From Candidatus Jordarchaeales archaeon (GTDB lineage: Archaea > Asgardarchaeota > Jordiarchaeia > Jordiarchaeales > Freyrarchaeaceae), in assembly GCA_038889235.1 (NCBI GenBank), contig JAWAHN010000003.1, forward strand, positions 22,437-53,605: a DNA stretch of 31,169 nucleotides. The letters are read 5' to 3'. The position numbers were made by a program, and so were the translations under genes. Every line of letters starts with the position of its first letter. Position 1 is the first letter of the stretch. A model generated the notes under the pieces. It worked only from the letters and a program-made list of their open reading frames with translations, made no database searches and was not told the DNA's origin. Positions 11,183-20,878 of the stretch are shown piece by piece.

Positions 11183-11728
11183 TTTTTCTCTTACCTTTTG
11201 CTCATTACGAAAAAGGGAAGGGGGCTTGAATGCTCCTCAGCTCGCCGGGCTAGAAAGTGGCCACCAAGCTTTGGTGTAAGTGAAGCTTAAATTAGTCGAC
11301 TTCGTTGTCATGTTGCTTACATGGGAAGCTTTGTCCGCGAATGTAATTTTAGAAAAACAGGAAACATTCTCTTGCCTGCTTAAGGCTTAACTTGGCATTG
11401 CTGAGATTTTCTTGAGGCAAGCGTTCTTCTGTCGGAGCTGTGTCACTCAACCCGGCGCTTGTTCTTTCAACCATACGAGCTTTAACGAGCGAAAACTTGC
11501 TTCCAAGTACATTTCCGTCTCTCTCACAATTCCTCGTATTGCAGCGACTTATAGGCGTCCCGGCGTTTGCTGTTTTTCCAGAAGTGCTACTGAAGTTTCA
11601 CCTGTTTTAATTTCTTTTGCAGCCCTCATACGCTGCTTCCTGAGCTTGGGTCTTCTGAGGACATTTTCCAGCGCGCATGTGATACCGTTCGTTTGGAAAT
11701 GTCGTTTCACACTGTTCGAATTAAGACG

Positions 11729-11740
11729 TAAAATTTAAAA
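11729..11740 (+). promoter_or_regulatory. TATA-like box of the ECF module promoter
   Basis: TAAAATTTAAAA lies ~40 nt upstream of ATG 11778 and directly abuts the inverted repeat. Confidence 0.55.
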
Positions 11741-11742
11741 CT

Positions 11743-11776
11743 TTGGTAATACTTTTTTGTAAAACAGTAATATCAA
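11743..11776. promoter_or_regulatory. Operator-like inverted repeat TTGGTAATAC-N14-GTAATATCAA (NikR-box-like geometry)
   Basis: Each 10-mer half matches the corresponding half of the 17611-17644 site at 9/10 positions with identical 14-nt spacing. It lies between the TATA-like box and the start codon. Confidence 0.6.
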
Positions 11777-11777
11777 T

Positions 11778-12572
11778 ATGAGGGTGTGCACCGTGCGCGG
11801 CTACTTTACGACGCGAGACCTAGCATACGTGTCCGTCACAACCGTGATGGTCTACGTGGTTGCTTTTGTGGCCATAATGAGTGTTTCGGCGTTCACAGCA
11901 TTTCCGGGAGCTAAGTCCATCGCGTCAGCCTTCTTCACGGCGATAGTGCTCGCCTTGGGCGCCATGAGGGTCAGAAAAATCGGAGTGATGAGCTTCGTAA
12001 CACTCCTGTGGGGCCTAATAAGCGCCTTCCTCTTCCCAGCAGTCCCCATACTCCTCCCCGCTACGCTAAGTGGTGGAGTAGCCGCAGACATCCTAGTCTT
12101 CCTTCTCAGAAAGGACTACTCAAGTGAGAGCGCGACCACCATTGCTTGCGGCGTCAGAAGCGGCGTCTCAACGCTCGTTGTGCTGTTGCTGGTGCTGGTT
12201 TTCGGCTCAAGCTCGCTTAGAGGCGCACCGCTCATCTTCCAATTATATGGTGCCACGCTGAGAGTGCAGGCTTTCCTCATGTTCATCAGTTTGGCGGGTG
12301 TTCCACCAGATGTCGCGTCGCTCTTCGGAGTGATTCTTACCGTGGGTGTTCTAGGCGCCTTCATGCCGAACTTGGGTGTTCCGGGGGAAATTGTGGCGTT
12401 TGCCGCGCCACTCCTGAAATTGCTAGGTGTTCAGGCTGGTGGCGTTGAAGCAGTGTTAACCCCATCGCTGATCGTCGTTATTTCGGCTCTTTGCTTCGCT
12501 CTTGGAGCCGCTGGCGGGTATGTTGGGGCACGCATAGGCAGGGAGCTTAAACTCGCGGGGGTTTACAGGTGA
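11778..12572 (+). CDS. Polytopic membrane protein, putative substrate-capture (S) component of the adjacent ECF transporter
   Basis: 264-aa ORF, almost entirely hydrophobic (about 7-8 TM segments). It is the first gene of an operon, with a GTGA overlap into the T component. It is longer than typical S components and no family signature was recognised. Confidence 0.72.
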   Translation: MRVCTVRGYFTTRDLAYVSVTTVMVYVVAFVAIMSVSAFTAFPGAKSIASAFFTAIVLALGAMRVRKIGVMSFVTLLWGLISAFLFPAVPILLPATLSGGVAADILVFLLRKDYSSESATTIACGVRSGVSTLVVLLLVLVFGSSSLRGAPLIFQLYGATLRVQAFLMFISLAGVPPDVASLFGVILTVGVLGAFMPNLGVPGEIVAFAAPLLKLLGVQAGGVEAVLTPSLIVVISALCFALGAAGGYVGARIGRELKLAGVYR

Positions 12573-13339
12573 TGCTGAGAGGGCTTCAGCTGACTAGCAC
12601 TAACACGTTTCTTAACGGCGTCGATCCGAGAGTCAAACTAGTGTTCGTTGCGGCTGTGAGTGTACTAAGTCTCGCTTTGAGCTCCTTTACCTCCCTTCTT
12701 TTTCTAGCACTGCTTCCAACTCTCACTCTGTCACTCGCTAGGGCGCTTGGCAGGGCTAGATTCTTCATTGTTTCGTTTCTCGTATTTTCTGCTCTGAGCG
12801 TTTTCGTTGTCTACCTTTTGAGGTTTGGCAGCGCTCTGGAATTTGCCAAGTTCTTTGTTAGGGTCTTCGCAGTGATGAACGCCGGCTTGTTCTTCGCTTT
12901 TACCACCTCACCCAACAAGTTTTCTAGGGGGCTTGAAAAGCTAAAGGTTCCGCGTTCAGTCTCCTTCACACTCACATTAACTATCAGGTTTATCCCTGTC
13001 TTTTTAAAGGAGGCGGAAGAAGTGTTGTCATCGTTGAAGGTGAGGGGGGTGAAGCTTGGGATAAGGGGGTTCATCAAAAACCCGAAGGTAGTATTACGGT
13101 CCTTGACCATACCTCTTATTGTACGCATGGTAAAAACCTCGGACGACCTGGCATCCGCCCTGGAGTCTAGAGGGTTTGGAAGCCCAGCTAAGAAGACCAG
13201 CCTTCACGAGGTGAAGGTAGGGAAGGTTGACTTAGCCTTCCTGTCCATCACTATGGCTTTCCTCGTCTCCCTCCTCTTGTTGGACCCATCCTTCTTCAGC
13301 TTTCTCGACTTTACAGCTTTCTGGAGGTTTATGGTTTGA
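12569..13339 (+). CDS. ECF transporter transmembrane (T) component, EcfT/CbiQ family
   Basis: 256-aa ORF with N-terminal GVDPRVKL and two Arg-Gly coupling motifs (SSLKVRGV, ALESRGFG). Start and stop overlap both neighbours. Confidence 0.85.
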   Translation: MMLRGLQLTSTNTFLNGVDPRVKLVFVAAVSVLSLALSSFTSLLFLALLPTLTLSLARALGRARFFIVSFLVFSALSVFVVYLLRFGSALEFAKFFVRVFAVMNAGLFFAFTTSPNKFSRGLEKLKVPRSVSFTLTLTIRFIPVFLKEAEEVLSSLKVRGVKLGIRGFIKNPKVVLRSLTIPLIVRMVKTSDDLASALESRGFGSPAKKTSLHEVKVGKVDLAFLSITMAFLVSLLLLDPSFFSFLDFTAFWRFMV

Positions 13340-14991
13340 GCGTTGAGGTCGAGCGTTTAAGTTATCGCTATCCCAACGCGGAAAGTGACTCGCTCGTCAA
13401 CGTCGACTTGAAGGTTAGTAGAGGAGAGTTCGTTCTCCTCGTTGGTAGAAGCGGTTGCGGTAAGACGACGCTGGCTAGGTGCATCAACGGACTTATACCA
13501 CACGTGTTCAAGGGCGAACTCAGGGGGGTAGTTAGAGTTGACGGGGTCAACGTGGCTGAGACTCCCGTGTATGAGATGGCTAAACTCGTCGGCATGGTTT
13601 TTCAGAACCCTGACACTCAGCTCTGCACGTTAACTGTGGAAGACGAGGTTGCCTTCGGCCCTGAGAACATTGGAGTTGAGAGAAGCGAAATTGAGGAGAG
13701 GGTTAAGTGGTCTCTTTCAAGTTTAGGGTTGGAAGGTCTTAGGTGGCGGAGCACTTTCAGTTTGTCCGATGGAGAAAAACAAAGGGTGGCTGTGGCGGCC
13801 GCCCTATCCATGCTTCCAAAGGTTCTAGTGCTTGATGAGCCAACGGCGAACCTCGACCCGAAAGCCTCCGAGATGCTCGTCGACACACTGAGAAAGTTGA
13901 GAGACAAGTATGATACCACGATTATACTAGTTGAGCACAGAGTTGACAGGTTCATTGAAGCGGCTGACAGAGTTGTCGTGATGGATTCAGGGAGAATAGT
14001 CGAAGACGGGCCTCCAGAAGTTGTAGTCAGGAAGGCCGACGTATTGGAGAAGTTGGGAATTCGAGTGCCTGAAGTCGTCGAGCTGTGTAAAGCGGTTGGG
14101 ATACCCCTAAACGGGGGGTTAGACGAACTTAGGTTCCTGGCCTTAGAGAGGATGAGGGAGCTGAGAGAGGCGAGCTTCGTCAACGACTGTTCGAGTCGCG
14201 GCGAGGAAATCCTGAGAATGGAGGATGTTGTGCTCAGTTACGGCGGTGTGTTCAGCCTTAGAGTTGACTTCTTCTCATTGTGCAGGGGGGAAGTTGTTGC
14301 TGTTATAGGTGGTAACGGCTCAGGAAAGACGACTCTCGCCAAGCTCATAGCTGGGCTCGTGAAGCCGAAAAAGGGTAGCATAAAAAGAGCGAAGGGTCTT
14401 AGGGTTGGGATGGTTTTCCAGAACTTCGAGGTTCAACTTTTCAGAAGTTCTGTCTTCGACGAGGTTGCCTTTCAACTCACCGAGAAGCTAGACCCAAACC
14501 ACGTTAAACGTAGGGTGGAATCCGTCCTGGCGGAGATGGGGCTCCTAAGTCTAATCGGCAGACACCCTCACTCCTTGAGCCAGGGTGAGAAGCAGAGAGT
14601 AGTCATAGCGTCTTTGATCGTCGACCCGCCGGACATACTCATACTCGACGAGCCGACAACAGGACAGGACGGGCATCACCTCAAAATACTGGAGGAAGCG
14701 GTGAAGAAAATGAAGATGAGCGGCGTGGCCACCGTTGTCATAACACACGACTTGTCCTTCGCCGCAAGGGTGGCAGAGCGGGCGGCGGTGGTGAGCGGCG
14801 GGAGAATCGCGATGACAGGAGACATCAGAGACATTTTGTACAAAATAGACGAGCTTGCAGGCTTCACCCCTCCAGAAACCGTTAAACTAGCGAGGGAAGC
14901 GGGATTAAGAGGGATTATTAAGCCAGGGGACTTTCAGGGTGTGTTCTGCAGCAAAGATGTGAGGAGTAGTATCGTCCAATGGGGTTATTAA
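13336..14991 (+). CDS. Fused double ABC ATPase of an ECF transporter (EcfA1-EcfA2 / YkoD-like)
   Basis: 551-aa ORF with two full cassettes. Walker A: GRSGCGKTT and GGNGSGKTT. Q-loop: VFQNP and VFQNF. Signature: LSDGEKQRV and LSQGEKQRV. Walker B: VLVLDEPT and ILILDEPT. H-loops: VEHR and ITHD. Confidence 0.93.
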   Translation: MSVEVERLSYRYPNAESDSLVNVDLKVSRGEFVLLVGRSGCGKTTLARCINGLIPHVFKGELRGVVRVDGVNVAETPVYEMAKLVGMVFQNPDTQLCTLTVEDEVAFGPENIGVERSEIEERVKWSLSSLGLEGLRWRSTFSLSDGEKQRVAVAAALSMLPKVLVLDEPTANLDPKASEMLVDTLRKLRDKYDTTIILVEHRVDRFIEAADRVVVMDSGRIVEDGPPEVVVRKADVLEKLGIRVPEVVELCKAVGIPLNGGLDELRFLALERMRELREASFVNDCSSRGEEILRMEDVVLSYGGVFSLRVDFFSLCRGEVVAVIGGNGSGKTTLAKLIAGLVKPKKGSIKRAKGLRVGMVFQNFEVQLFRSSVFDEVAFQLTEKLDPNHVKRRVESVLAEMGLLSLIGRHPHSLSQGEKQRVVIASLIVDPPDILILDEPTTGQDGHHLKILEEAVKKMKMSGVATVVITHDLSFAARVAERAAVVSGGRIAMTGDIRDILYKIDELAGFTPPETVKLAREAGLRGIIKPGDFQGVFCSKDVRSSIVQWGY

Positions 14992-15315
14992 GAAAAGTTA
15001 CCCGCCTCCAAGCATGAAAGGGAAGAGCGCAAGGCGCTCCCCGTCATAGATTGACGAAAGCACCTATCCACCACAACCCCACCTTCGAATGCTGGGCGAA
15101 ACCCTTCCCAATTTTCTGGCTTCGACGCCATGAACAACTTTTAGTTGAGAAACAGCTGGGTTAAACAGCATTCACGTGCTCCTCTCTAGTTATGGCAGCA
15201 TTTCACCTTTTACATCGTTCATCCCGTTAGTTACGCCGTTTGTCGATTTCCTCTGAAGGAGCCCGGGGTGTTGGAAGGCGAAAGTAGCCGCTACCCGGGC
15301 GCTTACCCCTTTTTC

Positions 15316-16140
15316 CTAGCTGGAAAATATCATTCGTCCATTCACGAACACGAGGAGTTTTCCCGGCTCGACCGACCTCCACTTTTCGTTAGTGAGGTAT
15401 ACTGGTTTAGGTGAGTAGTTGAGGGAGAGAGTTGTCACCAGGACGCCTTGCAGGCCTTTTTCCTTCCCTTCTTGCAGGATGACTTCTTCCTCACTGTCTA
15501 TTAGTCGCGTAGTTGGGAACGGCGCCATCCTAAAGGTTAACGCCATGCCATTGTAGCCTTCACTGTCATGGTAGACGAAAAGGTGTTCCCCGTCGCTCAT
15601 GGCGCAGTTGAGGAAAAAGTATTCGTTGATCTCGGCGAGCTTGTCTGCGAGCCACGAGAAGCCGTCTTCATCCCACGTCTCCACTCCACTCTCCATGCAG
15701 GCGAGAAGGTGGCAGAAAATGTACTCAGAACCCGTCTCGCCGTACGGTTTAAAATTTCCCAGCGGAAACCTCCTCTTAAACTCCAACCTTCTAAAGTTCC
15801 GCTTGAGGGAGCCGTTGTGCGCGAAAACATAGGTTTTGCCCTTCAGCTCCCTGCGAAAAGGGTGGGTGTTCTCGCAAGATGGGGGAGATAAACGCATGTT
15901 TGACGCGCGGCGAACGTGTGCAACAAAAATTTTGGATCGCACTTGCACGTCGGTTATCAGTGAGGTAAAAAGCCTGCTTTCCAGCGCCGTAGCAGGCTCC
16001 TTAACCACCCGCGCGGCTCCATCCTGGTACCATGCAACACCCCACCCATGCCAGTTAAACTTGCCCTTCACTCTAAAACCCCTAAGAGAGAAAGAAGCTG
16101 TAACAGGCTTATTGAAGCACATCGCTAGGAGGTCACACAA
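15316..16140 (-). CDS. Class II (Ntn-type) glutamine amidotransferase domain protein, YafJ-like
   Basis: 274-aa ORF beginning MCDLLAM (catalytic Cys2 after Met). HGWGVAWY, AHVRRAS, NTHPF and FAHNGS blocks are typical of GATase_2/COG0121. Confidence 0.87.
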   Translation of the reverse strand: MCDLLAMCFNKPVTASFSLRGFRVKGKFNWHGWGVAWYQDGAARVVKEPATALESRLFTSLITDVQVRSKIFVAHVRRASNMRLSPPSCENTHPFRRELKGKTYVFAHNGSLKRNFRRLEFKRRFPLGNFKPYGETGSEYIFCHLLACMESGVETWDEDGFSWLADKLAEINEYFFLNCAMSDGEHLFVYHDSEGYNGMALTFRMAPFPTTRLIDSEEEVILQEGKEKGLQGVLVTTLSLNYSPKPVYLTNEKWRSVEPGKLLVFVNGRMIFSS

Positions 16141-16680
16141 GCCACGACCCCCTGAAAACTAACACTTTCAAGCTTCTCATTAAAGGCCTCTCTTAAATAG
16201 TTGTGCCCAACTATTTTCAAGGCTCCTCCTCTACCGTGTTTTGCCACATTTCGAGGTGTCATGTCCTAGTAAGAAAGTTTCTCGTTGACAGGAAGGCTGA
16301 GCTCAGCCGCGCCCCAAACCATAAAGGCTCAAACTTCTCAGCCTACCGCAGATAAAAGGCTTCTTCCCAGAGCTAGATAGGCATAGAAAAGTAGTAGACC
16401 TAGAAGCAATAAGCAGAGCGCACAACTAAAGTGAGGGTAGGCTGCATGTGAACCTCCTAATAACTGAGCCCCATTTTTTAAAGTGACCCTTTCAATCCTA
16501 CCGCTAGGTGCTTCGAAGACTCGACTTACACGCTGAAAGTCAAACTGGCGTTACGGAACAGTGGGCCCCTTGCCCAAAAGGTCAAAGGCGAGGGTGCCAC
16601 GTACCTCTGCTGAGCCCTCTCCAGGGGGCGTAAAGCTTGTATTCCTCGCCGCCGCCTTTCTTGGTGGCTGGTGGTGGCGT

Positions 16681-17385
16681 TTGCAGGGAGAAAACCTATC
16701 GTCGCTGAAGAGGATAATCGACGAACACATGAAAATGGTTTCAGGGTTAAAGGAGCACTGCGAAAGGTGCCTTAGGACTGAAAGGTGGGGTGGGAGCGTC
16801 GTGCTCATGGTTGTCGATGCAGCCTTCACCTCGATAGGGCTAAACTATTTCACAGCGGTTGTGCCAAAAGTCGAAGAGTTCAGTAGAAGGTTTGTTGAAA
16901 CGGGGCGTATAACCCGCTTAAGGGACCTCGCAGAATCCAGCTTAGAGGAGCTCACAGCCGTCTGGCGCAACAAGAGATCGCTAATGGTTGCCAAAGAAGT
17001 AGCAGCCTACCTTTCAACCTTGAGCGAGGACGACAGGGAGGCTTTAAGAAGCTGGGCTAGGAGTGCAAGAATAGAGGAGTGGAAGCGCGACCCCATAGGA
17101 AGAATAAAGGGGGTCGGCTTAGTCACATTCCAATACCTGAGGATGATGGGTGGAATAGACACGGTGATGCCCGACAAGATAGTCAAAAGAGTGATAAACG
17201 GGATACTTGCAGAAGCAGGGCTTAAACCTGTCGAAGACGACCTAGAATTCGTGAGAACAGTGGAGCGGCTGGCTGTTGTGTGCGGTTACAGGCCAATAGA
17301 GCTCTGCTGGATGACGTGGCTCATACAACCAGAAGGAAAAAAGATGAGGATGGAAAAATACGCCCCACTACTCCAAAAAATATGA
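16681..17385 (+). CDS. Hypothetical protein with helix-hairpin-helix (endonuclease III-like) motif
   Basis: The ORF is open from 16561. TTG 16681 follows GGTGGTGG, and ATG 16729 is an alternative start. IGRIKGVGLVTFQYLRMMGGIDTVMPDKIVKRV resembles the HhH followed by a 'PVDxHVxRV'-type segment. Function unknown. Confidence 0.65.
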   Translation: MQGENLSSLKRIIDEHMKMVSGLKEHCERCLRTERWGGSVVLMVVDAAFTSIGLNYFTAVVPKVEEFSRRFVETGRITRLRDLAESSLEELTAVWRNKRSLMVAKEVAAYLSTLSEDDREALRSWARSARIEEWKRDPIGRIKGVGLVTFQYLRMMGGIDTVMPDKIVKRVINGILAEAGLKPVEDDLEFVRTVERLAVVCGYRPIELCWMTWLIQPEGKKMRMEKYAPLLQKI

Positions 17386-17597
17386 CCGAGAACGGTGGAC
17401 CCCCTTAAAAGAAGCACCTCCAGCTCAATGGATGAAACACACCTTGAAACTCCACCTCAACCCCCCGTGCTTCCATAGGTTCATCGAAAGCTGCAAATAC
17501 GCTTGAAGCGCAACTCTTTCTGAGGGGTTATAGTGGCAGGCTGCCCGGCCCTCCGCCTGCTTGTTTAAAGAGGGCTCCGCGGGCCATGTGAGGAAAA

Positions 17598-17607
17598 GTT
17601 TATAAAA
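17598..17607 (+). promoter_or_regulatory. BRE/TATA box of the cbiM/nikM promoter
   Basis: GAAAAG followed by TTTATAAAA, ~55 nt upstream of GTG 17659. Confidence 0.65.
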
Positions 17608-17610
17608 CAT

Positions 17611-17644
17611 TTGGTATTACTTTAAGACAAAAAAGTAATACCAA
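17611..17644. promoter_or_regulatory. Perfect inverted repeat TTGGTATTACTTT-N8-AAAGTAATACCAA (NikR-box-like operator)
   Basis: 13-bp perfectly complementary arms, read directly. The core GTATTA-N16-TAATAC has the geometry of the E. coli NikR operator GTATGA-N16-TCATAC. It covers the expected transcription start. Confidence 0.7.
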
Positions 17645-17658
17645 GGTAGGGTGGTAGA

Positions 17659-18402
17659 GTGCACATACCCGATGGGTTCCTCGACCTGGGAGTAACTATG
17701 GTGTGCGCGGCGATCTCGGCGGCTTTCATCGTGATAGGGGTTATTCAGGCAAAGCGATACATGGACGAAAGACACGTCCCCTTAATGGCTGTATTGACGG
17801 CCGGAGTCTTCGCAGCCCAGCTGCTCAACTTCCCGATAATAGGCGGGACAAGCGGGCACCTGGTTGGAGGAACACTGCTAGCGGTCTTTCTAGGACCCCT
17901 CGGCGCTCTCCTTTCCATGACCGTCATCCTAGCAGTCCAAGCTCTCTTCTTCGGTGACGGTGGCATCACAGCCCTAGGGGCTAACATACTGAACATGGGC
18001 GTCATAGGAGGCATCATAGGCTACTACGTTTACATCTTAGTTAGAAGGCTGGTGGGCAAAGGTGGATGGGGTGTAAGGATCGGAGCAGCTGTAGGCTCAT
18101 ACATCTCGGTAGTCCTAGGAGCCATAGCCTGCGGGGTTGAACTAGGTGTCTCGTCGCTCTTCCCCTTCCCCACCTGGATCACGGTTCCAGTGATGACGGG
18201 GTGGCACATGGTGATAGGGATTGGAGAAGCGCTGATAACCTTAGTTGTCATCGAGTACGTCCTTAGGGCTAGGCCGGACATGCTAGCCCTCCCTAAGGTA
18301 GGCTTCCGCGGCCTGCTAAAAGGCGTTAAAAGTGAGGAGCTGGAGGCGATGGAGAAAAAGGAGCTTGAAACCGTGACCGGAAAAGTGGCTGGAGGGGGTT
18401 AA
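17659..18402 (+). CDS. cbiM: ECF-type Ni/Co transporter substrate component CbiM/NikM
   Basis: 247-aa ORF starting with the invariant MHIPDGFL (Met1-His2 metal-binding N-terminus), with 6-7 TM segments. The GTG start is preceded by GGGTGG. Confidence 0.94.
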   Translation: MHIPDGFLDLGVTMVCAAISAAFIVIGVIQAKRYMDERHVPLMAVLTAGVFAAQLLNFPIIGGTSGHLVGGTLLAVFLGPLGALLSMTVILAVQALFFGDGGITALGANILNMGVIGGIIGYYVYILVRRLVGKGGWGVRIGAAVGSYISVVLGAIACGVELGVSSLFPFPTWITVPVMTGWHMVIGIGEALITLVVIEYVLRARPDMLALPKVGFRGLLKGVKSEELEAMEKKELETVTGKVAGGG

Positions 18403-18403
18403 T

Positions 18404-18919
18404 GTGGCGTCGATAGTTGAAGCGATAAAGGCTACCTGGCGCCAGAGGTGGTTTAGGCTCAGCGTCCTAGCAGGGGTAATAGTGATAGGATTCTTCCTAC
18501 CGCTTGCATCAACAGCTCCCGACGGCCTGGAGCGAACCGTAGAGAGTTTGGTCCAACCGCTAGACATCACGTTGATGCTTATTTACTACGGCGAGGTGAC
18601 AGGGGAGACGGGGCCCCTGAGTGCTTGGCTAACCTTCCTGGGAATCAACTACCTGTTGCGGGCGCCGATGCCAGACTACGTGTTGCTTCAGCTAGCTCCG
18701 GGGGTTTATGTGAGCTACGTGCTTGAGATGATGAGTGCGCTCCAAGTGCTGGGACTAGCATCCTTCGAAATTCCAGAAGACGTCGTAGCGCTGCTGCTTA
18801 GCTCGGCTGGCGGACACGAGTATCTGGCATCTCTCACAGCGTCGCTAATAGGTTTCTTCGTGGTTCTCGGAGTAACCTGGCTGGTTGGCTTCGCCCTCAA
18901 GAAGAGGAAGGCGGCTTAA
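18404..18919 (+). CDS. PDGLE-domain membrane protein (CbiN/NikN-position accessory component)
   Basis: It starts 1 nt after the cbiM stop. The layout is an N-terminal TM, then the literal PDGLE motif (STAPDGLERT), a later APMPDY, and a C-terminal TM plus basic tail. At 171 aa it is longer than the ~100 aa I recall for this domain. Confidence 0.8.
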   Translation: MASIVEAIKATWRQRWFRLSVLAGVIVIGFFLPLASTAPDGLERTVESLVQPLDITLMLIYYGEVTGETGPLSAWLTFLGINYLLRAPMPDYVLLQLAPGVYVSYVLEMMSALQVLGLASFEIPEDVVALLLSSAGGHEYLASLTASLIGFFVVLGVTWLVGFALKKRKAA

Positions 18920-18945
18920 GCTCCGCCGGGACGCCATGGGCGTTT

Positions 18946-19021
18946 GAGGGGGCTGCCGGGGGGTTTACACAGTCCACCGCCCCCCACGTAACCCTCCCCC
19001 TCCCGGCACCCCCCTTTTTTT
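18946..19021 (+). terminator. G/C-run hairpin followed by T7 (intrinsic-terminator-like element)
   Basis: GGGGG(c)TGCCGGGGGG (18948-18963) can pair with CCCTCCCGGCACCCCC (18998-19014). The core is TGCCGGG/CCCGGCA plus G-run/C-run flanks. TTTTTTT (19015-19021) follows immediately. Oligo-T is the archaeal termination signal. Confidence 0.55.
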
Positions 19022-19053
19022 GGTATTATTTCGAACAAAAAGAATATTAACTC
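19020..19053. promoter_or_regulatory. Degenerate third copy of the operator-like repeat
   Basis: The left half TTGGTATTAT matches the 17611 site at 9/10 positions, and the A-rich centre (GAACAAAAAG) is similar. The right half GAATATTAA matches only loosely, needing a 1-nt gap. It lies 40 nt upstream of the cbiQ start. Confidence 0.4.
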
Positions 19054-19092
19054 TGGACTTCATGTTTCCTTCAAAACTCGGAGGAAGCAGCG

Positions 19093-20016
19093 GTGCGTGG
19101 AGCCGGTTTCAAGGAGTTTTTCGAGCTGTTCGAGCGTCTTCTCGACGCTGAAAGGTTTAACAGTATAAATTCACCTGTCCACAGGCTTGACCCCCGTGTC
19201 AAGATACTTGCTTCCACAGCCATCATACTGTCCGCCATAGCCGTGGACGGCTTCTTCTACCTGATACCGTTAGCGTTCGCAGTCCTGTTTTTGCTGTCCA
19301 TCTCTAGGCTGCCTAGGGCTGTGTTTCTCTCCCGCTCACTTCCCTTCACTCTTCTCAGCGCACTGGTCGTTCTACCGGCCCCATTTGTGACCCCCGGGGT
19401 TCCCGCTGCAACAATTCACCTCCCCCTGGTCACCGTCACCCCGACATTTGAGGGGGTTTACAGGGCTGTAACCTTCGTTTTTAGAGTTTGGATCTGCATA
19501 TCTTCGGCGCTGCTCCTAACTTTCACGACGAGATTCCCAGATATCGCCGCAGGGTTAAGGGGGATGGGGTTTCCATCCCTCCTTTCATTAATCCTGCTCC
19601 TAACATACAGGTACTCCTTCCTCTTCGCCGACGAGGCTTTGAAGATGCTTCAAGCAAAGGAGTCTAGGACGCTTAAAAAGGAGGGCTTCTTCGAGAGGGT
19701 TAGGTTAGTTGGAAAAATGACCGGCTGCCTTCTCTTGAGAGCCTACGAGAAGGGTGAAGAAGTTTACTACGCCATGAGCTTGAGAGGCTTCCATGGAGAG
19801 CTGGCTCCAACGGTCTCCAAGCTCAAGCTGAGGGCGTGTGACGTGGCGTTCGCCGTGGCGTTCACCGCGTTTTGCCTCACCGTTGCCCTGCTTGGGTGGG
19901 GTGGTCCATCTTTTGTGGCGTTCTGGCTTCCACTCGCCAAGATAATCGTGGTCAAAGCTTTGCTAAGGTGGGTCGTGTTAATAATACCTTTGTCGGGGGG
20001 CTTCGCTGTTGCGTAG
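19093..20016 (+). CDS. cbiQ: ECF transporter T component CbiQ/NikQ
   Basis: 307-aa ORF with HRLDPRVKIL near the N-terminus and Arg motifs QAKESRT and AMSLRGF. It is polytopic. The GTG start lies 8 nt after GGAGG. Confidence 0.87.
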   Translation: MRGAGFKEFFELFERLLDAERFNSINSPVHRLDPRVKILASTAIILSAIAVDGFFYLIPLAFAVLFLLSISRLPRAVFLSRSLPFTLLSALVVLPAPFVTPGVPAATIHLPLVTVTPTFEGVYRAVTFVFRVWICISSALLLTFTTRFPDIAAGLRGMGFPSLLSLILLLTYRYSFLFADEALKMLQAKESRTLKKEGFFERVRLVGKMTGCLLLRAYEKGEEVYYAMSLRGFHGELAPTVSKLKLRACDVAFAVAFTAFCLTVALLGWGGPSFVAFWLPLAKIIVVKALLRWVVLIIPLSGGFAVA

Positions 20017-20878
20017 TGTGGTTCTCGAAGCTGACGACGTCTGGTTCACCTACCCTGACGGCACACAGGCGTTGAAAGGAGTAAGCTTCAGGGTGTTTAG
20101 TGGGGAAACCGTGGTCCTGCTCGGGCCTAGTGGGGCTGGTAAGTCAACTCTGCTCCTCCACTTCGCGGGCATACTGTTTCCCACGTCTGGCAGCGTCTAC
20201 GTTTGCGGCGAAAGGGTTTCGAGAAGGAACGTCAGAGAGGTGAGGAGACGCGTGGGCTTCGTCTTCCAGAACCCTGAAAGCCAGCTCTTCTGCCCGACCC
20301 TCTGGGAGGATGTGGCCTTTGGCCCAATTAACATGGGACTTCCGCCGGACGAGGTTGAGAGAAGGGTTAGGATGGCGCTGGAAGCCGTCGGCCTCCTAGA
20401 CTACGCCCGTAAGCACCCTCACCACCTGAGTTTCGGGGAGAAGAGGAGAGCTGCCCTCGCCACAGTTCTATCCATGGACCCCGAGATATATCTCTTCGAC
20501 GAGCCGACAGCAAACCTTGACCCAAAAAACGCCTCGTATGTCGTCGGCAAGATAGTGCAGCTTTCAGAGGAGGGGAAAACCGTTCTAGTAGCAACACACG
20601 ACATCAACATGCTTCCACAAGTGGCTTCGAGAGTCGTCGTTATGAGCGGCGGCAGAGTTGTCTCAGACGGGAAGCCGGAGGAGGTCCTTTCAGACTTCAA
20701 GCTCATCGAGGAAGCCGGGTTACAGCCGCCAGTGGTCACAAGCCTCCTCCATGGCATTCACGAAGAAGGAATACTGAACGTAGATACGCCGTACCCGATC
20801 TCCCTGGAGGCTGCGAAGTGGAAGATAAGGGAGAGCGTGAAGAAACTGCTGGAGGGTGCACGAAGCCCTGCAAAGTAA
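20009..20878 (+). CDS. cbiO: ECF transporter ATPase CbiO/NikO
   Basis: Motifs: Walker A GPSGAGKST, Q-loop VFQNP, signature LSFGEKRR, Walker B IYLFDEPT, H-loop ATHD. The start is either TTG 20009 (overlapping the cbiQ stop) or GTG 20018. Confidence 0.93.
   Translation: MRSVVLEADDVWFTYPDGTQALKGVSFRVFSGETVVLLGPSGAGKSTLLLHFAGILFPTSGSVYVCGERVSRRNVREVRRRVGFVFQNPESQLFCPTLWEDVAFGPINMGLPPDEVERRVRMALEAVGLLDYARKHPHHLSFGEKRRAALATVLSMDPEIYLFDEPTANLDPKNASYVVGKIVQLSEEGKTVLVATHDINMLPQVASRVVVMSGGRVVSDGKPEEVLSDFKLIEEAGLQPPVVTSLLHGIHEEGILNVDTPYPISLEAAKWKIRESVKKLLEGARSPAK

Follow-up and report, generated by a model that had tools for sequence, protein, structure and literature searches.

The perfect palindrome upstream of the gene annotated as cbiM (17611-17644) is best explained as the operator of a NikR-family nickel repressor, placed ahead of a nickel importer, and we consider this reading quite probable. 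The palindrome lies in a stretch of 31,169 nucleotides (hereafter the window; C3:22437-53605) from a genome of Candidatus Jordarchaeales (Asgard), a MAG-like assembly of 2.14 Mb in 8 contigs that is estimated to be 95% complete. Positions without a contig or locus prefix refer to the window. The nikM locus comprised the following features.

17593-17607, plus strand: nikM promoter, with BRE-like GAAAAG (17593-17598) followed by the TATA box TTTATAAAA (17599-17607)
17611-17644, no strand assigned: operator B, TTGGTATTACTTT-N8-AAAGTAATACCAA, matrix score 45.3
17645-17658, plus strand: putative nikM leader of 14 nt with Shine-Dalgarno-like GGTGG, followed by the GTG start
17659-18402, plus strand: nikM/cbiM, substrate-capture component of 247 aa, N-terminus MHIPDGF, PF01891 (E 1.2e-60)
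18404-18919, plus strand: NikN-like PDGLE partner, membrane protein of 171 aa with the motif APDGLE, PF13190
19021-19054, no strand assigned: operator C, TTGGTATTATTTC-N8-AGAATATTAACTC, score 35.6, 39 nt ahead of the nikQ GTG
19093-20016, plus strand: nikQ/cbiQ, ECF T component, PF02361 (E 3e-40), TIGR02454 over its cut-off
20009-20878, plus strand: nikO/cbiO, ECF ATPase, PF00005, TIGR01166 over its cut-off

The palindrome is built of a left arm (17611-17623), the spacer aagacaaa (17624-17631) and a right arm (17632-17644). The inverted-repeat search returned 13-nt arms with 8 nt spacing and 100% complementarity, and of the perfect spaced inverted repeats in the window's listing this one is the longest. 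The core half-sites are GTATTAC (17614-17620) and GTAATAC (17635-17641), separated by N14 and with their centres 21 bp apart; the hexamer pattern GTATTA-N16-TAATAC is also matched exactly. The operator begins 4 nt past the TATA box and ends 14 nt before the GTG of nikM. As the TATA box at 17599-17607 is conserved, the transcription start is expected near 17627-17632, inside operator B. The first-pass annotation had described perfect 13-nt arms, a BRE/TATA element directly 5' of the palindrome and a GTG 14 nt behind it that opens a gene for a protein beginning MHIPDGF. The sequence and the inverted-repeat listing bore out all of this (GAAAAG-TTTATAAAA at 17593-17607; GTG at 17659 of a 247-aa ORF). 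The two further sites that it had alluded to were confirmed as well, at 11743-11776 and 19021-19054, and a window scan with up to two mismatches gave 4 matches against 0.4 expected.

The structure of a NikR-operator complex from E. coli has been deposited as PDB 2HZV. The operator of that system reads GTATGA-N16-TCATAC (PMC7055735), and the layout of the window's site agrees with it, as had been proposed from the sequence, with one base different per half. The likeness to the nikABCDE operator of E. coli thus covers the inverted hexamers, the 16-nt spacer, five of the six bases per half and the location at a nickel importer promoter, and it extends to the presence in this genome of the same regulator family with conserved Ni ligands. 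In contrast to E. coli, the half-site is better described here as GTAWTAC, which is nearly palindromic in itself and is accompanied by T/A-rich inner flanks. The regulator's DNA-reading strand is R-x-S-x-S, the promoter is of the archaeal BRE/TATA type, and the target is an ECF-type NikMNQO system rather than NikABCDE. Published NikR boxes include GTATGAT-N13/14-ATCATAC in enterobacteria and the predicted GTGTTAC-N13/14-GTAACAC before nikMNQO in delta-proteobacteria (PMC545781, Rodionov et al. 2004). The same source lists one predicted delta-proteobacterial site of the form GTaTTAC-N13-GTAACAC, and the occurrence of both half-site orientations among the published boxes agrees with a central position in the archaeal half-site that is free to be A or T. 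The Jordarchaeales box shares with the delta-proteobacterial ones the 7-N14-7 layout, six of the seven bases per half and a target made of nikM with a PDGLE/NikN partner. Unlike them, the archaeal boxes have A at position 3 throughout instead of G and a spacing fixed at N14, and the Jordarchaeales regulon adds cobN, chlID and an MptD-type ECF module.

The genome-wide occurrence of the box was determined by a search with the half-site TTGGTATTAC (up to one mismatch), followed by a matrix scan of the whole genome. Exactly six full sites were obtained, with scores of 35.6-45.7 and the next candidate at 17.3, a gap that is partly circular as the matrix was built from the same six sites, whereas the initial half-site search is free of this circularity. 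All six sites were intergenic, located in promoter regions, co-oriented and 1-50 nt from the longest-ORF start, and the better half-site, TTGGTAWTAC, was the gene-distal one in every case. The first-pass annotation had looked to such a scan for enrichment at promoters, and six of six sites did occupy intergenic promoter positions. Five of them directly precede metal-related genes (nikM-PDGLE, nikQO, the MptD-type ECF module, cobN and chlID), and the sixth adjoins a SAM methyltransferase gene. The three sites outside the window are those at CobN (1232 aa, PF02514), at a fused ChlI/ChlD-type AAA+/VWA protein (642 aa) and at the SAM methyltransferase. The features beyond the nikM locus were as follows.

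11743-11776, no strand assigned: operator A, TTGGTAATACTTT-N8-ACAGTAATATCAA, score 43.5, directly after TATA-like TAAAATTTAAAA (11729-11740)
11778-14991, plus strand: second ECF module, with an MptD/Trep_Strep-type S component, a T component and a fused double ATPase
C3:88687-94475 (L004:1509-8478): cobN and chlID locus, in which each gene carries its own box
C2:208410-208443 (L003:4011-4044): methyltransferase-adjacent site, a perfect GTATTAC-N14-GTAATAC with TATAAAAA in the spacer

In the second ECF module, the S component starts at ATG 11778 or, more likely, at GTG 11794, and is followed by the T component (12569-13339) and the fused double ATPase (13336-14991). The transporter genes nikQ and nikO make up a second transcription unit headed by a box of its own, operator C, which has a good distal and a degenerate proximal half; similar sites were seen before cbiQ in loci L008 and L104. 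The PDGLE gene and nikQ are separated by 173 nt with G-runs, then C-runs and a T7 tract ahead of operator C (18920-19020), and this gap divides the usual MNQO operon into two units, each with a box. The box of cobN was conserved throughout the order, that of chlID at family level; the sister family has chlID behind cobN in one operon. The methyltransferase-adjacent site is flanked by a Methyltransf_11 gene and a Sybindin/longin-like gene, and the true start of the methyltransferase probably lies about 27 codons downstream of the longest-ORF start. This site was not found in the relatives, since their methyltransferase gene directly follows another gene. A NikR-regulated methyltransferase shared with Methanosarcina was considered and rejected, the resemblance being that of a generic domain (30% identity over 102 aa). 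Together with nikM, the genes nikQO, the MptD module, cobN and chlID, which carry boxes of matching geometry, would make up a small nickel-starvation regulon; the nickel role of the MptD-type module, cobN and chlID is itself a proposal.

Perfect GTAWTAC-N14-GTAWTAC sites numbered 2 in the whole genome, in comparison to 0.05 in Markov shuffles. Perfect GTAWTAC pairs occurred in this genome at two spacings only, N14 (2 sites) and N16 (2 sites). The N16 pairs (C1:170276-170312, L005:3970-4010; C1:1088215-1088256, L007:4003-4057) were rejected as regulon members for their wrong spacing; they precede a 4Fe-4S ferredoxin-like gene and topoisomerase VI-B, and are probably chance occurrences or sites of another factor.

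The genes behind operator B are named for cobalt in Pfam and NCBIfam, and so is CobN, which raises the question of the metal. A NikR-family protein could bind the box with cobalt or another metal as its effector and as the transported ion, so that the boxes would define a cobalt-starvation regulon of CbiMNQO with a CobN/ChlID cobaltochelatase. NikR homologues encoded beside zinc transporters have likewise been suspected of sensing another metal (PMC3087415). We nevertheless consider this unlikely. The N-terminus MHIPDGF conforms to the signature M-H-x-x-D/E-G shared by CbiM and NikM S components, but the protein scored under every NCBIfam cobalt CbiM equivalog cut-off. Its partner is of the PDGLE/NikN type and not CbiN. 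The partner's 171-aa ORF is longer than usual and its PF13190 score barely exceeds the cut-off (27.7 bits versus 27); a PDGLE partner was present in 40 of the 44 closest homologue loci, and the orthologous Methanosarcina protein matched PF13190 with E 2e-17. Neither CbiC nor ALAD was found in this genome, and it holds a single TP_methylase. There is consequently no evident corrin or tetrapyrrole synthesis, and a cobaltochelatase would be left without a substrate pathway, gene absences being provisional in a MAG-like assembly that is 95% complete. A [NiFe] hydrogenase large subunit is encoded. Moreover, NikR1, described below, retains the ligands H, HxH and C of square-planar Ni coordination, and a close homologue of the transporter is encoded in one operon with nikR, downstream of a classical NikR box. 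A regulator specific for B12 or cobalt had been suspected from the boxes before cobN, chlID and cbiMNQO, and was dropped in view of the missing CbiC and ALAD and of the box before nikR orthologues. Nickel is therefore favoured over cobalt as the substrate of a putative NikMN-QO system on the basis of the PDGLE partner, the NikR box, the [NiFe] hydrogenase and the lack of a corrin pathway among the genes found. The regulon of NikR-type boxes likewise points to the so-called cobalt transporter being a NikMN-QO nickel importer. The proposal that the 'cobalt' annotation should read nickel was thus supported, with the APDGLE motif of the partner among the grounds for it, and the annotation would be corrected from cobalt to nickel. 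The genome also carries a second CbiM-type ECF operon on the minus strand (C1:245830-246675, L144:1723-4197). It encodes a CbiM-like protein of 307 aa with the N-terminus MAHVHLPDG, followed by ORFs of 247 and 277 aa that stand in the CbiQ and CbiO positions, as judged by placement only. No box was found upstream of it, and it may be a cobalt system or serve another substrate.

The regulator had been expected outside the window, and two genes coding for an RHH domain with NikR_C were indeed found elsewhere in the genome, NikR1 (C1:472774-473187, minus strand) and NikR2 (C1:186718-187110, plus strand). NikR1 (138 aa) aligned end to end with the NikR proteins of P. horikoshii (2bj1, E 2e-28) and E. 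coli (1q5v), and keeps all four high-affinity Ni ligands (His76, His87, His89 and Cys95 in E. coli numbering). In the DNA-reading strand it has R-I-S-V-S-L (R-x-S-x-S), as compared with R-V-T-I-T-L (R-x-T-x-T) in E. coli, and strands of the form R-I-S/G-V/I-S-L were also present in NikR of the box-bearing genomes that were checked. NikR1 is most likely the protein that would bind the box. NikR2 (146 aa; locus C1:185395-187110, L002) keeps the Ni ligands, has a different strand (VVSISL) and is encoded next to a P-type (E1-E2) ATPase. This paralogue may regulate metal efflux separately, through an operator of its own. A Verrucomicrobiota MAG (L014:1570-1600) carries a nikR-nikM-PDGLE operon behind a GTGTTAC-N14-GTAACAC box, which is a textbook type-2 NikR box; the nikM product of this operon is 47% identical to the window's NikM, and its NikR has the R-x-S-x-S strand.

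The tie between NikR and the box was drawn from NikR1 orthologues of other Asgard genomes (30 loci, 98 kb). A perfect box lay within 250 nt upstream of nikR in 11 of the 30 loci, mostly at -82 to -127, and a one-mismatch box preceded nikR in 5 further loci. Over the 98 kb, perfect matches were confined to N14 (10), with none at N10-13 or N15-18, and one of the box-preceded nikR ORFs was confirmed as NikR by Pfam. The presence of the box upstream of nikR orthologues links it to NikR and not to another factor. Within the present genome, neither nikR gene had a box upstream, even with 3 mismatches, so that their autoregulation was rejected and the tie depends on the orthologues in other lineages. 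A NikR homologue was encoded in 23 of the 25 Asgard genomes that bear a perfect box, the exceptions being a genome with a 21-nt tandem repeat and one whose site is devoid of T/A-rich inner flanks. As NikR is widespread (in 86 of 121 Asgard genomes, and in 98% of methanogens according to PMC10617489) and the relatives are not independent, this co-occurrence is weakly supportive.

The same data bear on the idea that an unrelated transcription factor uses the box as its operator, with the box-bearing nikR genes as targets of that factor instead of being autoregulated. The boxless nikR genes of this genome would agree with it, and the identity of the binding protein was deduced by sequence comparison. 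We regard it as quite improbable, given that the published NikR boxes share with it the 7-N14-7 geometry on one DNA face and six of seven bases per half-site, that 11 to 16 of the 30 loci have the box before nikR, and that no other regulator gene was seen beside the boxed operons in the loci inspected.

Conservation of the box was followed in other archaea around CbiM homologues, the closest relatives of the window's protein being those of Candidatus Jordarchaeum and Jordarchaeales MAGs. A box at the same position ahead of cbiM was present in three Jordarchaeales relatives and in one Bathyarchaeia MAG (L008-L011). In the three Jordarchaeales relatives, a block AAAG(T)TTTATAAA was kept 3-4 nt 5' of the box while the flanks diverged. 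The box likewise precedes cbiM/nikM at this position in Methanomicrobiales and Methanosarcina, and a TATA-like sequence falls within its spacer in the methanogens. A sample of 855 kb around 80 CbiM homologues, scanned with up to one mismatch, gave 30 matches at N14 and 2 (with one mismatch) at N13; N15 and N16 yielded nothing. The matches were all archaeal (Jordarchaeales, Bathyarchaeia, Methanomicrobiales and Methanosarcinales), and most were located either in the 300 nt or so upstream of cbiM or ahead of a gene next to it; no archaeal-type box was found in the bacterial CbiM loci of this sample. Among 121 Asgard genomes, 37 perfect boxes were counted, in comparison to 14 matches of the reversed-pattern control. 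The perfect-box search of five reference genomes returned cbiM sites only, which at this stringency suggests a small regulon outside Asgard.

The sequence comparisons also speak to a third reading, by which the palindrome acts as RNA, either as a hairpin in the 5' leader that controls translation or stability or as a terminator, and not as protein-binding DNA. The palindrome does fold as a 13-bp stem (-21.6 kcal/mol, z -4.5), and it was picked up on the minus strand by the terminator scan. Nevertheless, among 31 distinct perfect sites the central W of the half-sites was complementary in 18 and non-complementary in 13, which indicates that the sequence is conserved and not the pairing. At the sites designated C, E and F, the second arm is degenerate and no stem could form. 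With the start expected inside the palindrome, the left arm would remain untranscribed, and no minus-strand gene ends at the palindrome. Rfam covariance models, for the cobalamin riboswitch or any other RNA, gave no match at E up to 1 within 11400-19300. The RNA reading was rejected for want of covariation and in view of the degenerate sites, and we hold it to be hardly credible. A chance event in an AT-rich promoter, for which a perfect GTAWTAC-N14-GTAWTAC is expected about 0.05-0.1 times per genome (from the Markov shuffles and the 14 control matches in the 121 genomes), is effectively refuted by six co-oriented promoter sites in one genome, by conservation at the same position across archaeal phyla and by the strict N14 spacing.

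For the NikR operator, a mechanism can be proposed from the structure of the family and the position of the box. The NikR tetramer would place one ribbon-helix-helix dimer at each end, and each dimer would recognise one half-site, GTAWTAC, through the major groove. The half-sites are 21 bp apart, i.e., two helical turns, and hence both lie on the same DNA face. When nickel fills the C-terminal sites, NikR would clamp onto the box; TBP and TFB might still bind, recruitment of RNA polymerase would be blocked, and nikM-nikN would be turned off. When nickel is scarce, the box would be free and the importer made. Repression as the direction of regulation, the nickel dependence of binding and the blocked step are all parts of this proposed model. 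Several archaeal repressors bind at the TATA box or just past it, e.g., MDR1 of Archaeoglobus and Phr and LrpA of Pyrococcus. An operator placed just past the TATA box and over the start blocks the recruitment of RNA polymerase, not the binding of TBP and TFB. The nikM operator resembles these systems in spanning the region from a few nucleotides after the TATA box to the expected start, and it is from this position that the polymerase step is suggested for nikM. Unlike in those systems, the protein would be an RHH-ACT tetramer. In the methanogens, as at sites C, E and F, the box and the likely TATA box overlap, and binding of TBP and TFB would be prevented instead. As the overlap exists at some sites and not at others, the blocked step may differ among promoters.

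NikR repression of nikMNQO is not new as a principle and has been predicted by comparative genomics since 2004-2006, for bacteria from 2004 on (PMC545781). Rodionov et al. reportedly extended the predicted NikR boxes to other bacteria and archaea in 2006. According to the summary in PMC10617489, Rodionov et al. 2006 predicted NikR control of nikMNQO-type transporters for methanogens. Our literature search, with Rodionov et al. 2006 outside its scope, returned no paper linking NikR to GTATTAC/GTAATAC boxes in archaea and none on NikR regulation in Asgard archaea. The box is a sound regulatory annotation of an established type and involves no new mechanism. The putative NikR-box pair would be one of the few sequence-defined pairs of a transcription factor and its operator for an Asgard archaeon, and it provides a testable nickel context for the orphan CobN/ChlID chelatases, the MptD-family ECF capture proteins and the PDGLE partner.

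Of greater interest is a by-product of the analysis, the orphan CobN/ChlID chelatase, a conserved member of the putative regulon in a lineage in which genes for tetrapyrrole synthesis were not found. With no ALAD or CbiC found and one TP_methylase, the chelatase has no obvious tetrapyrrole pathway to serve. Tentatively, the class-I CobN and the fused ChlI/ChlD might perform a nickel-related task other than the synthesis of cobalamin, F430 or chlorophyll, with the MptD-type ECF module importing the substrate of the chelatase; we think of this as possible but rather doubtful. If true, the chelatase could, for example, work in reverse and strip nickel from scavenged metallo-tetrapyrroles, or deliver nickel to another acceptor in an ATP-driven manner.

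The consensus GTAWTAC-N14-GTAWTAC with T/A-rich inner flanks is usable for mapping nickel regulons across archaea, and the scans gave several observations beyond the importer genes. In Asgard genome G018 (L097:1440-1530), tandem 21-nt units, GTAATACTTTCTGTCTCAACT, imitate the box in a genome with no NikR homologue; this array is a false positive that is to be filtered in regulon scans. In Asgard genome G019 (L095:1501-1528), a perfect box lies 16 nt ahead of a gene for a ZnuA-family periplasmic metal-binding protein, and NikR seems to control a cluster-9 ABC importer in this lineage. The Methanosarcina loci contain a second perfect box about 2 kb upstream of nikM (L051:3531-3558 and L075:3973-4000, with equivalents in L057, L062 and L066). 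No nicotianamine-synthase gene was found in the Jordarchaeales genome. The second Methanosarcina box is bordered on one side by two nicotianamine-synthase-like genes and a methyltransferase, and on the other by an unannotated protein of 334-344 aa, an arrangement that suggests a nickel-regulated opine-type metallophore system.
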